The notes beneath the pieces are model-generated. The model was not told where the DNA came from, searched no databases, and saw only the letters and a list, made by a program, of their open reading frames with translations. Below are positions 51,562 through 61,098 of a stretch of 64,000 nucleotides of DNA, piece by piece. The DNA lies in IMG/VR virus record IMGVR_UViG_3300033066_001283, positions 32,001-96,000 of that record; one strand, 5' to 3'. Origin of the DNA: a virus (lineage: Duplodnaviria; Caudoviricetes). Numbering within the stretch: position 1 is the first letter of the stretch; every line of letters starts with the position of its first letter. The position numbers and the translations under genes were made by a program.

Positions 51562-54500
51562 TTAACTACTCCATGCATCCTTCTTCATCTCGGCTATGAG
51601 TTGATCAGTTTGGTCTTCAAACAGGTGCATATTAACATTAACTACATTCGTATCCGATGCTTTTATATCATATTTTACTCTTAAATTTTTACCTGCTAAG
51701 GCTGTGATTGCTTCCAATCTTCCACCAATCAAGAATCCAGTACCCCGATCCATTCTAGGTATCATAACATTCTTAGTGTGGTCTCTAGCTCTCTCAGTTC
51801 TTGCCCTAGAAGGTCTATCAATCTTCTGTCCTTCCATCTCAGCAGCACGATCCTCAATATCATCTAATTCTACAGATGGATCCCAACCTTGCCAGAATGG
51901 TCCTGGTAAGAAATGTTTCTGGAAGTATTTAGACATTCTAGGTCTTATTGGTAAGTCTCTTTCATCTACTCCAATAAACTTACCGAGTGTTCTTTTCTCG
52001 GGATTAGAAAGTAGACTATAGAATCTCTCTTTCTCTCTTCTAGAACCATTTAGAATAACACTTCTAGCCAATTGCTTATGTCTATCTGGGATTGCTGATA
52101 GAGCTTCATCTAGTGAACCTGAATCTGGATCAAAAGCATACATAGTTCCCATAGCTTTCTTCTCAGCATTTAAAGCCAAGATTGCCCATGGACCTAAGCC
52201 TACAGTTGTTCTCTTTTCAGCATCTTCTAGCTGATCAATATCTACTCCCTCAAGTCTTTTAGCTTTCTTCTTCGCTGCATTTGCAATAGTTGAGAATTTA
52301 ACGAACTTGATTAGATCCCAATATTCATCATGCATTCTTCTCTTCTTAACTCTAGAAGGAACCCATTCATCATGATGAACAAGATCATAGAATGATTTTA
52401 AGGTTGCTAAACTACCACCAGCAACTGCTCCAGCTATTCCAGCCCACTTCTTATACTCTTTACTACCGGTTATAAACATACCAGCAATAGCAGCACCCAT
52501 TAGTGCGCCTTCAAATGGGTTCTTAGAGGCAATAGCAGATAGAGTTGGTCCACCAAATGTATCCCACATATGTGCCCAAGAGGTCTCGTCGGACCCGAAC
52601 GCTTCTGAGCGTTCTAATTGCTCCGTTGCAGTTCTCACTCTTAGAAATTTATTAGAGTTATGAATAGTATATTGTAAGGTAGAAAATGTATGATTATCTT
52701 CAACTTCAATATCAACCACTTGATTTTCTATTTCAACCTTCTCTATAGATTTTATCTGTAAAAGGCTAAATCCATCTAATACTCTACGTCTCCAACAATT
52801 ATTTCCTTTACCCATTGCGTATTTAAAGTCTTTTTCAATATACTCATCATTACAATTTATAAACTCTTCTAGCTCCTCTGAGTACCCCAAATTAAGAGTA
52901 AGATATTCTCGCTCTCCAACATAGAACGTACTAATATTACTTGGAATTTTCCAAAGGTCAAATAAGCAATCTCGAGTCCAGGTAATTAATTCTTTAGCTT
53001 TTAAAGTAATATCTGTGTATGCATATCTTCGCTTTACTGCGTCTCCTCTAAACAGACCTCTAATAAACTCAGCCCTAAGTTCTTTATTAGCTAAGATTTC
53101 ATCTGGCGCGATTTTGTTTCCCTTAGTTCCAAAGTACTTTTCTACAAAGGTACTAAGAACAATATCTGCAATACCAAAAACAATCCCATTTCCTTTTGTT
53201 TTTGTTTGAACATGAAGCCCAAGTGTATTAGCAATGTTTATTACATCATTATGATAATCTACTTCTTTAATATGAAAGCCTAATTCAATTCCTCTAGGCT
53301 TGTTATCTCTACCGTATTTTAATGACCCCTCAGCAGCATAGTATCCCATTAATCGGGCCAATTCTCTAGTAATTACAATCTTCTGAGTTCTAAGATGTAT
53401 GTTATTTCCTGAATATATCCCTTTATCATTATTCTTAAACTTAGGATCTAGATCTAGTATACTAACTTCGGGGGGTACTATATTAGGTAAATTTCTAGAC
53501 TTATAAACTAGATAATCTCCTAGAGTTAACTTTTCTACATTTCTAAACTCAATACTATCTGGCGGAATACAGTGATTTTCAAGTTTTCGCTTGATTCTTA
53601 CAGTCTTTCTTACAGTTTTATTTGCAGCTAGAACTTGATGATTCCCCGTAATATAAAAAGGAATATTAGATCCGTGAGTCATAATTTTATAGACTTGATT
53701 AGTTGGTTTTCCAATTCTAGTATCAAGCACTTTCTTATACTCTCCAGTGTGTGTTAAAACTTCATCTCCTATTTCAATCTCAGAAGCTTTTTTGATTTTA
53801 AATTTAGTCTGCACAAAAGTATTCTCATCAATGCAGAACATATTATCTCTATGTAATAGATTCTCAGCTATCTTTCCAAAGATAGGCTCACCAAATAATA
53901 CTCTTCCTGATAAGGGATCACGGGCTTCTGAATCACGATCAGCGTAATCTGAGTTAATTAGTCTTGCATTAGCTGATCCAAAGATTGCAGGTAGATTAGC
54001 ATCATTAGTAAGCTCAGGATTCCATTGACCCTCTAGAAGTGTCATCTTATGTTTCTTTCCAACGACAATTCCATACTCCTTCATAATAGTTTCAGGATCT
54101 TTTATAGCAAAAGCTTGATTATCCCATTTAATTCCTGCCATCTTAAAAGTTCCAATATCAGTTGTAACTGATCCATCACCATTAACTCCTAATATCATTG
54201 CTGAGTGGGTTTCTAATTTAGGAGAGTATCTATTAGGGTAAAGATTATAATCTTCTGATAATTTACCTGCTGTTCTTAAGGCTACTTGGAATCTCTGTTT
54301 TTCAAAGCCACCAAATCCTCCTGATTCTTCAGCAAACTGTACAGCATCTCTGAATTCTTGTGATTTAGGTGCAACTCTAGCTAAGATTTCAATTCTAGAA
54401 AGAAGATCATAGGTTTCATATTTAGATACAGTTCCCTGTGCTACAAGCTTATTCATAACAGCTCTTGCTCTATCTACCTTATCCAGTATGTTCTGCCATC

Positions 54501-61098: not shown

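Follow-up and report, generated by a model that had tools for sequence, protein, structure and literature searches.

Enzymatic cargo on virion-internal proteins is a known theme in phages. Tail-internal proteins carry cell-wall hydrolases, some siphovirus tape measures have peptidoglycan hydrolase motifs, and in a few phages polymerases or anti-restriction enzymes are injected along with the DNA. Tmp of mycobacteriophage TM4 carries a peptidoglycan-hydrolase motif (PMC1796659). In the Bacillus thuringiensis phage 0305phi8-36, gp143 and gp144 show the overlap pattern of a two-gene tail chaperone, Hardies et al. assigned the tape measure on a length criterion to gp146, the gene next to gp145, with the chaperones "one gene removed", and the hub protein of the BtI1 prophage was found to carry a staphylococcal nuclease domain (PMC2147016). 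Here we describe a giant gene of the gp145 type that contains a predicted PD-(D/E)XK nuclease. It lies on the minus strand at 51562..61098 of a 64,000-nucleotide stretch of Caudoviricetes DNA (positions 32,001 to 96,000 of IMG/VR record IMGVR_UViG_3300033066_001283; this whole stretch is called the window below), and its source contig has 150,263 bp with a G+C content of 37%. The joint best explanation, to which we give a probability of about 0.5, is that large myoviruses of the 0305phi8-36 lineage encode in this gene a giant virion protein of the tail region, which would be loaded, ejected and act with its nuclease cargo at genome entry.

The closest described protein is gp145 of 0305phi8-36 (1930 aa; aa, amino acids), of which an intein-free family member is a collinear homologue over the full length (BLASTP E 9e-41, 9e-16 and 2e-11); the homology runs through the central region, the junction motif, the staphylococcal-nuclease-like (SN-like) domain and the C-terminal domain. 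The two genes share the same post-chaperone slot, the C-terminal domain, a glycine-zipper region and a nuclease core from which no motif is lost, gp145 retaining H, E, D, D-I-K and Q..Y. The nuclease and SN-like module of gp145 lies at about aa 1005-1495. They differ in that identity is only ~23-31%, that gp145 is without inteins and has a ~65-aa insert inside the nuclease, and that no metallophosphoesterase gene follows gp145. The nuclease domain of gp145 is neither annotated in its record nor mentioned in the open papers searched. An earlier reading of the window from its letters alone (the original prediction) had taken the protein for a virion component, and the 0305phi8-36 record agrees, since it lists gp145 as "identified as virion protein by mass spectrometry". 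The homologues of Bacillus phages WH1 and KLEB27-3 are annotated as structural proteins, and none of these three homologues is annotated as a nuclease or tape measure. A megablast comparison of the giant gene with cultured phages gave no match.

Other described systems share parts of this arrangement. TM4 Tmp is likewise a large tail-internal protein encoded after the tail chaperones with a dispensable catalytic module for use at infection; its module, however, is a cell-wall hydrolase and not a predicted DNA nuclease, and the giant protein is of doubtful ruler function and belongs to a contractile-tailed phage with a separate second giant gene. The BtI1 hub also places a nuclease domain on a tail protein of the same lineage, but on the hub instead of the gp145-type protein. 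Polyvalent injected proteins (PMC5512222) resemble the proposed system in being multi-domain, delivered with the DNA and equipped with exchangeable enzymatic modules. Surveys of these proteins and of jumbo phages make no mention of a tape-measure-type or gp145-type protein with a nuclease, and no report of one was found in the literature searched, nor of a DNA nuclease built into a tail-internal protein.

The predicted nuclease domain

The giant gene is a single uninterrupted minus-strand open reading frame (ORF) of 3178 codons, and its 3178-aa precursor contains three inteins. The exteins sum to 2026 aa, the length that had been proposed for the spliced protein (about 2026 aa). In five intein-free homologues (2078-2129 aa) the sequence runs on without a break at exactly the three junctions, which fixes the intein boundaries and the 2026-aa product. 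All sequence strings quoted in the original prediction were located in this ORF: FG/SEAHLKIQ across intein 2, EVSI (E2116), ISGTIDAIV (D2131), IFDIKT (D2144 and K2146), YIDQITAYM (Q2163 and Y2167), GVNGDGSV (2304-2311) and FKMAGI (2318-2323).

Exteins 2 and 3 together form a predicted PD-(D/E)XK nuclease in which no element of the catalytic motif set (H, E, D, D-x-K and Q-x3-Y) is missing. The last ~42 aa of extein 2 (55840-55965, minus), ending in F-G of motif I, supply the N-terminal part of this module, and the catalytic core spans aa 2096-2227 (54418..54813, minus), with H2099, E2116, D2131, D2144-x-K2146 and Q2163-x3-Y2167. Since intein 2 cuts motif I (G/S-x-x-H), an intact nuclease domain would exist only after splicing. 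Residues 2097-2217 matched PHROG families of Cas4-type, RecE-type and Cas4-domain exonucleases (E 3e-11 to 7e-6), among them PHROG 1706 at E 3e-11 for the whole ORF. An exhaustive cluster search with extein 3 as the query matched 267 clusters, at least 163 of them at E<=1e-10; in the best 150 of the clusters matched, nearly all proteins have ~2000-3000 aa, with the domain some two-thirds of the way through the chain. An alignment of 78 nuclease segments of this kind from relatives shows at least 90% conservation at each of the following positions: Gly and His of motif I, a Glu, Asp of G-x-x-D, Lys of (D/E)-x-K, and Gln and Tyr of Q-x3-Y. Searched against the Protein Data Bank (PDB), the 78-sequence profile found the Cas4 protein SSO0001 (4ic1, E 1.5e-8) and MGME1 (~4e-3), and G-R-A-D and E-I-K of SSO0001 line up with its catalytic columns. 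The profile was needed for these matches, as phmmer with extein 3 alone found nothing among PDB sequences. Extein 3 alone, a part of a domain split by intein 2 and hence scored only partially, reached 13.8 bits against the 22-bit cut-off of PDDEXK_1 in Pfam, and 11.7-12.5 bits against the cut-offs of 65-68 for cas4 and phage_rel_nuc in NCBIfam.

The fold was modelled with AlphaFold on a contiguous, intein-free segment of a homologue (P0006:1311-1720, 59% identical) using an alignment. The model has a mean predicted local distance difference test score (pLDDT) of 92.8 and a predicted template modelling score (pTM) of 0.84, superseding a single-sequence model of extein 3 that was unusable (pLDDT 35). 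It has the restriction-endonuclease-like alpha-beta core. Foldseek and an independent structural search (VIA) placed LHK-Exo, lambda exonuclease, Cas4, MGME1, Exo5, RecE and Dna2 on top (Foldseek E ~2e-6; Z 10.8-14.7), the VIA Z scores being 14.7 to 4ic1, 14.2 to 3syy, 13.1 to 3slp and 12.9 to 5zyt. The RecB-family active site that had been called apparently intact is thus borne out by the motif set, by the PHROG and 4ic1 matches and by structural scores of Z 13-15, together a signal well above chance, and the modelling proposed as a check of the PD-(D/E)XK assignment gave, for the homologue segment, the expected fold with Z up to 14.7.

With lambda exonuclease, LHK-Exo, RecE, MGME1 and SSO0001 the domain shares the fold and the H, D, (D/E)xK and QxxxY set; unlike them it is embedded in a structural protein of ~2000 aa and fused to an SN-like OB domain. 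Cas4 proper differs further by its four-cysteine Fe-S cluster. All 22 cysteines of the ORF are inside the inteins and none is among the 2026 extein residues; a Cas4-type Fe-S cluster is therefore absent, which places the domain with the lambda-exonuclease/MGME1-like members and not with Cas4 proper.

The weak SNase/OB-like segment noticed after the nuclease stood at the level of the fold. Model residues 280-391, equivalent to aa ~2293-2404 of the giant protein (53887..54222, minus), where GVNGDGSV and FKMAGI are located, match the SN-like domains of Tudor-SN, SND1 and SNase, with Z of 9.0 for Tudor-SN 2wac, 8.5 for 3bdl, 7.4 for SNase 1sta and 7.1 for SND1 4qmg. The match is moderate, since in VIA a Z below 8 can reflect a common arrangement of elements, and it supports with moderate confidence an OB-type SN fold in the modelled protein. 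In this region the alignment of the 78 relatives has no column conserved at 90% or more.

Inteins and modular architecture

From its N-terminus the precursor begins with extein 1, whose first 900 aa (58399..61098, minus) evolve fast, with 19-25% identity to relatives, and include a hydrophobic segment at aa 27-45 (60964-61020). The rest of extein 1, aa 901-1269 (57292..58398, minus), is a conserved central region rich in glycine and aromatic residues, 44-50% identical to relatives and also recognisable in the Bacillus phage homologues. Intein 1 (417 aa, aa 1270-1686; 56041..57291, minus) is followed by the 67-aa extein 2 (55840..56040, minus), intein 2 (342 aa, aa 1754-2095; 54814..55839, minus), the nuclease core, a conserved helical linker (aa 2228-2292), the SN-like domain, intein 3 (393 aa, aa 2422-2814; 52657..53835, minus) and the 364-aa extein 4 (51565..52656, minus), which is kept in all relatives. 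Extein 4 has two hydrophobic helices of glycine-zipper type at aa 2864-2900 (52399-52509). Beyond a weak glycine-zipper match on the exteins (E 0.1), Pfam and NCBIfam gave no known family for the N-terminal, central and C-terminal exteins, and a full-length family profile found nothing in PDB other than the nuclease.

The three insertions open with Cys and close with Asn followed by Thr or Ser: Cys1...His-Asn and Thr+1 in intein 1, Cys1...Gly-Asn and Ser+1 in intein 2, which is without the penultimate His, and Cys1...His-Asn and Ser+1 in intein 3. Each is of the LAGLIDADG endonuclease type; in Pfam a LAGLIDADG_3 domain scored 31.8 bits against a cut-off of 22.5, next to weaker Hint and intein-splicing signals, and block B (T/S-x-x-H) appears in the translation as SEEH, TKNH and TGNH. 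With Cys1, block B, the C-terminal Asn plus Ser or Thr, and exact absence from homologues, they have the marks of class 1 LAGLIDADG inteins. Intein 1 sits in the conserved RFK/TG junction. Allelic inteins in other family members are 43-56% identical at sites 1 and 2 and ~30-36% at site 3.

The gp145-type family as a whole is an intein hotspot. Intein-bearing homologues include P0019, P0024-P0026, P0034, P0068, P0069, P0104, P0130, P0143, P0163 and P0165, further sites occur in the family, for instance at position ~1101 of P0006 and inside the nuclease, and many more distant members have several intein-like segments each. Another LAGLIDADG intein was found in the window in an 818-aa glycosyltransferase-like protein with a SEC-C zinc motif at its end, encoded among the baseplate genes (30892-33348, minus).

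Regional identities were computed against the five closest relatives. Extein 2 and the nuclease core are 54-68% identical, the SN-like domain 31-52% and the C-terminal domain 43-49%; the highest identity falling in the nuclease, this is the most constrained part of the protein. The ~175-aa nuclease core is nevertheless cleanly absent from P0045, P0068 and P0007, from gp096 of Bacillus phage WH1 and from the homologue in Moorella phage MTATph1, all of which retain the upstream junction motif as well as the downstream helical linker, SN-like domain and C-terminus. Loss of the core with its flanks in place indicates an exchangeable cargo module in a conserved scaffold. A separate observation concerns Bacillus phage vB_BauM_KLEB27-3 (L006:4122-11275), where a 211-aa gene of no assigned function divides the gp145-type gene into two ORFs, of 1340 and 677 aa, both labelled "structural protein"; the downstream piece starts just past the place where the nuclease core would lie.

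The tail-gene neighbourhood

As had been predicted, the giant gene follows tube and chaperone genes. The upstream order is major capsid protein, two sheath-like genes, two tail-tube paralogues, a 278-aa gene and a pair of 225 and 188 aa (61095..62341, minus), which forms a two-gene tail chaperone of the gp143/gp144-like pattern: the 188-aa protein matches gp144 of 0305phi8-36 (E 5e-6), and the 225-aa protein has a C-terminus similar to the N-terminus of its 188-aa partner, as described for gp143 and gp144. The ATG of the giant gene overlaps the stop of the 188-aa gene (ATGA) and its own stop lies 3 nt ahead of the next ATG, which sets it inside a tightly coupled late operon. Downstream, a gene for a metallophosphoesterase (362 aa) and three small ORFs lead to an ORF of 1473 aa, beyond which lie a 241-aa protein and a 2710-aa hub. 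The order of sheath, tube, two chaperones, giant gene, second giant gene and hub is kept in relatives. The two tail-tube paralogues (62350-63998, minus; L001:2186-4002) match phrog_9206, which is labelled "major head protein". The label can be traced to the 0305phi8-36 entry, in which the product field carries it and the note reads "tail tube", and is a propagated annotation error; the same mislabel occurs in the record of Moorella phage MTATph1.

The calcineurin-like metallophosphoesterase (362 aa; 50470..51558, minus) comes right after the giant gene in each of the six freshwater relatives that were examined, and PHROG matches link it weakly to families labelled SbcD-like, DNA-repair-exonuclease and "DNA transfer protein". 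A functional tie between this enzyme and the nuclease was considered and rejected, because it persists in two relatives without the nuclease core.

The second giant gene (1473 aa; 45260..49681, minus) occupies the position of gp146 in 0305phi8-36. Its product showed no similarity to gp146, a word-indexed homologue search matched only the protein itself, so that positional homologues were located directly, and the Protein Atlas gave no usable match. D614-x-E616(-T), D677 and H752-x4-D757 are invariant between this protein and four positional homologues at ~20% identity. The spacing at aa ~610-760 is DEDDh-like and hints, from the sequence, at a possible 3'-5' exonuclease domain; no Pfam, NCBIfam or PDB-sequence profile supported this assignment. 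Between the second giant gene and the hub, an Ala/Gly/Leu-rich protein of 241 aa with three hydrophobic segments (44535-45260, minus) is a candidate membrane-inserting partner of ejected proteins. The baseplate hub (2710 aa, gp147-type; 36406..44538, minus) matches phrog_20474 at E 2e-89 and ends the tail-internal gene block. After it stand separate wall hydrolase genes, GH108-like (229 aa) and CHAP (211 aa), at 35116-36440 on the minus strand; in 0305phi8-36, by contrast, the hub protein itself carries the lytic domains as fusions.

A possible role at genome entry and its alternatives

In the arrangement that we favour, the giant protein would consist of a scaffold, made up of the hydrophobic N-terminus, the variable 900 aa, the conserved central region, the glycine-zipper helices and the conserved C-terminal domain, and of a cargo unit with an Fe-S-free lambda-exonuclease/Cas4-like PD-(D/E)XK nuclease followed by the SN-like OB domain. 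Aided by the adjacent two-gene chaperone it would be loaded into the tail, and upon sheath contraction it would be expelled. The N-terminal segment (aa 27-45) and the glycine-zipper helices (aa 2864-2900) could then anchor it in the membrane, presenting the nuclease at the site of DNA entry. We infer the tail location, the ejection, the membrane anchoring and the target DNA alike, and consider that phages of this family probably deliver a nuclease along with their DNA. We favour a job at the leading end of the entering phage genome, which the nuclease would handle or subject to 5' resection. Lambda exonuclease, RecE, MGME1, Exo5 and Cas4 start at DNA ends, and the one such end within reach would be the leading end of the phage genome, which favours end handling and makes an attack on host or competitor DNA our second choice. 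Mu gpN and T4 gp2 are virion proteins that accompany the DNA and take care of its ends as it enters; these and gp44 of Staphylococcus phage 80alpha are small and without a nuclease fold, and they are not homologous to the giant protein. gp44 is reported to be an ejection protein that binds genome ends (PMC7290940), and so a virion protein travelling with the DNA and acting at its ends, which is the mechanism that may also apply to the giant protein.

Several points weigh against this arrangement. The support for a place in the virion is a database note on a homologue of ~23% identity, and there is no direct evidence for any family member that the protein leaves the virion or enters the cell. 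The nuclease fold was modelled on a homologue of 59% identity and not on the exteins of the window, and isolated extein 3 falls under the curated Pfam and NCBIfam cut-offs. The role of the nuclease is accessory, being dispensable in several lineages. Some Cas4-family enzymes cut single-stranded DNA internally, which makes end-dependence uncertain. The ~300 folded residues of the nuclease and SN-like domains in the homologue model would be hard to fit in the lumen of the tail tube, unless the folded domains sit in the baseplate or are unfolded.

The original prediction had placed the protein in the tape-measure slot, but a tape-measure identity is not supported in that form. The giant protein as the true tape measure, its 2026-aa product setting tail length with the nuclease as cargo, is rather unlikely. 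It is indeed encoded directly downstream of the tail chaperones, by the first gene past a G/GT-like pair and translationally coupled to it, its hydrophobic and glycine-zipper segments would suit such a protein, and its N-terminal 900 aa evolve fast, as tape measures do. However, it is neither adjacent to the hub nor the only giant tail-internal protein: five called genes, the 1473-aa ORF among them, separate it from the hub, the second giant gene is closer to the hub in every relative examined, and the gene at the corresponding gp146 position is the assigned ruler of 0305phi8-36, the one relative that has been studied. Across ten genomes, with inteins discounted, the gp145-type protein is steady in length (~1760-2130 aa) whereas the second giant varies from 1249 to 2537 aa. 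Moorella phage MTATph1 and 0305phi8-36 have gp145-type proteins of equal length, but second giants of 1309 and 2537 aa, respectively. The usual tape-measure ratio is 1.5 Å per residue. At this ratio the 1930 aa of gp145 would be too short for the 0305phi8-36 tail, which is 486 nm long (PMC1817643); a tail length for Moorella phage MTATph1 was not found in the literature. The confidently folded globular domains of the homologue model also argue against a ruler. Pfam, PHROGs and NCBIfam gave no tape-measure family match for the giant protein, nor for the 1473-aa protein or gp146, which is inconclusive given the fast divergence of tape measures. The giant protein is thus probably not the length-determining tape measure, and the neighbouring second giant is the better candidate.

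Accepting the nuclease, its target and timing can be read otherwise. That it is an injected weapon, perhaps with the metallophosphoesterase and the DEDDh-like domain, degrading the DNA of the host, a plasmid or a rival phage, or a defence nucleic acid, seems unlikely to us. Three candidate nucleic-acid or phosphoester hydrolases are clustered in the tail-internal block, the nuclease comes and goes among relatives as expected for conflict-related cargo, and a related prophage hub has a staphylococcal nuclease domain (PMC2147016); against this, the closest structural relatives of the domain are end-dependent 5'-3' exonucleases and a circular chromosome has no ends, the metallophosphoesterase is uncoupled from the nuclease, remaining where the core is lost, and there is no evidence for packaging of the 362-aa enzyme. 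A non-cutting grip or cap, which would hold the leading end in the tail and pilot it or shield it from RecBCD/AddAB, would be in keeping with a lambda-exonuclease/Cas4 fold that engages DNA ends, with an adjoining OB domain without a recognisable catalytic set and with the existence of end-binding ejection proteins such as gp44 of 80alpha (PMC7290940). Yet each catalytic residue (H, E, D, D/E-x-K, Q and Y) is conserved in 90% or more of the 78 diverse members, which speaks for chemistry more than mere binding, and we regard the grip as quite improbable. More improbable still is action in the producing cell, in recombination, replication or packaging-related processing, with the structural fusion being incidental. 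No second nuclease of the same profile occurs among ORFs of at least 100 aa in the 150-kb genome, and among stand-alone proteins the closest relatives are Thermus-phage exonucleases of RecB type, as such a role would have it; but more than 100 diverse giant proteins carry the domain within the chain, at a constant position, it is fused into a late structural gene, and the lineages without the core are still viable phages.

A loaded and ejected gp145-type protein with nuclease cargo, the reading that we prefer, would add to infection an early step that precedes transcription, either the handling of incoming genome ends or an attack on resident DNA, if the nuclease is delivered and active. This step would be common to a family of uncultured large phages with well over a hundred sequence clusters, and because a cultured relative, 0305phi8-36, has the domain, it is directly testable. 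The presence or absence of the module, together with the crowding of inteins at conserved sites, amounts to a natural experiment on the exchange of cargo in virion proteins. A bolder proposal, which we hold only tentatively, is that a widespread contractile-tailed lineage injects an active lambda-exonuclease-like nuclease that processes its own leading genome end. If so, end resection might expose single strands of terminal repeats for annealing and circularisation, or outrun end-dependent nucleases of the host, possibly in teamwork with the second giant tail protein and its DEDDh-like domain, a candidate 3'-5' exonuclease. The family would then have a virion-borne machine for processing DNA ends, of a kind described for no phage tail in the literature searched.

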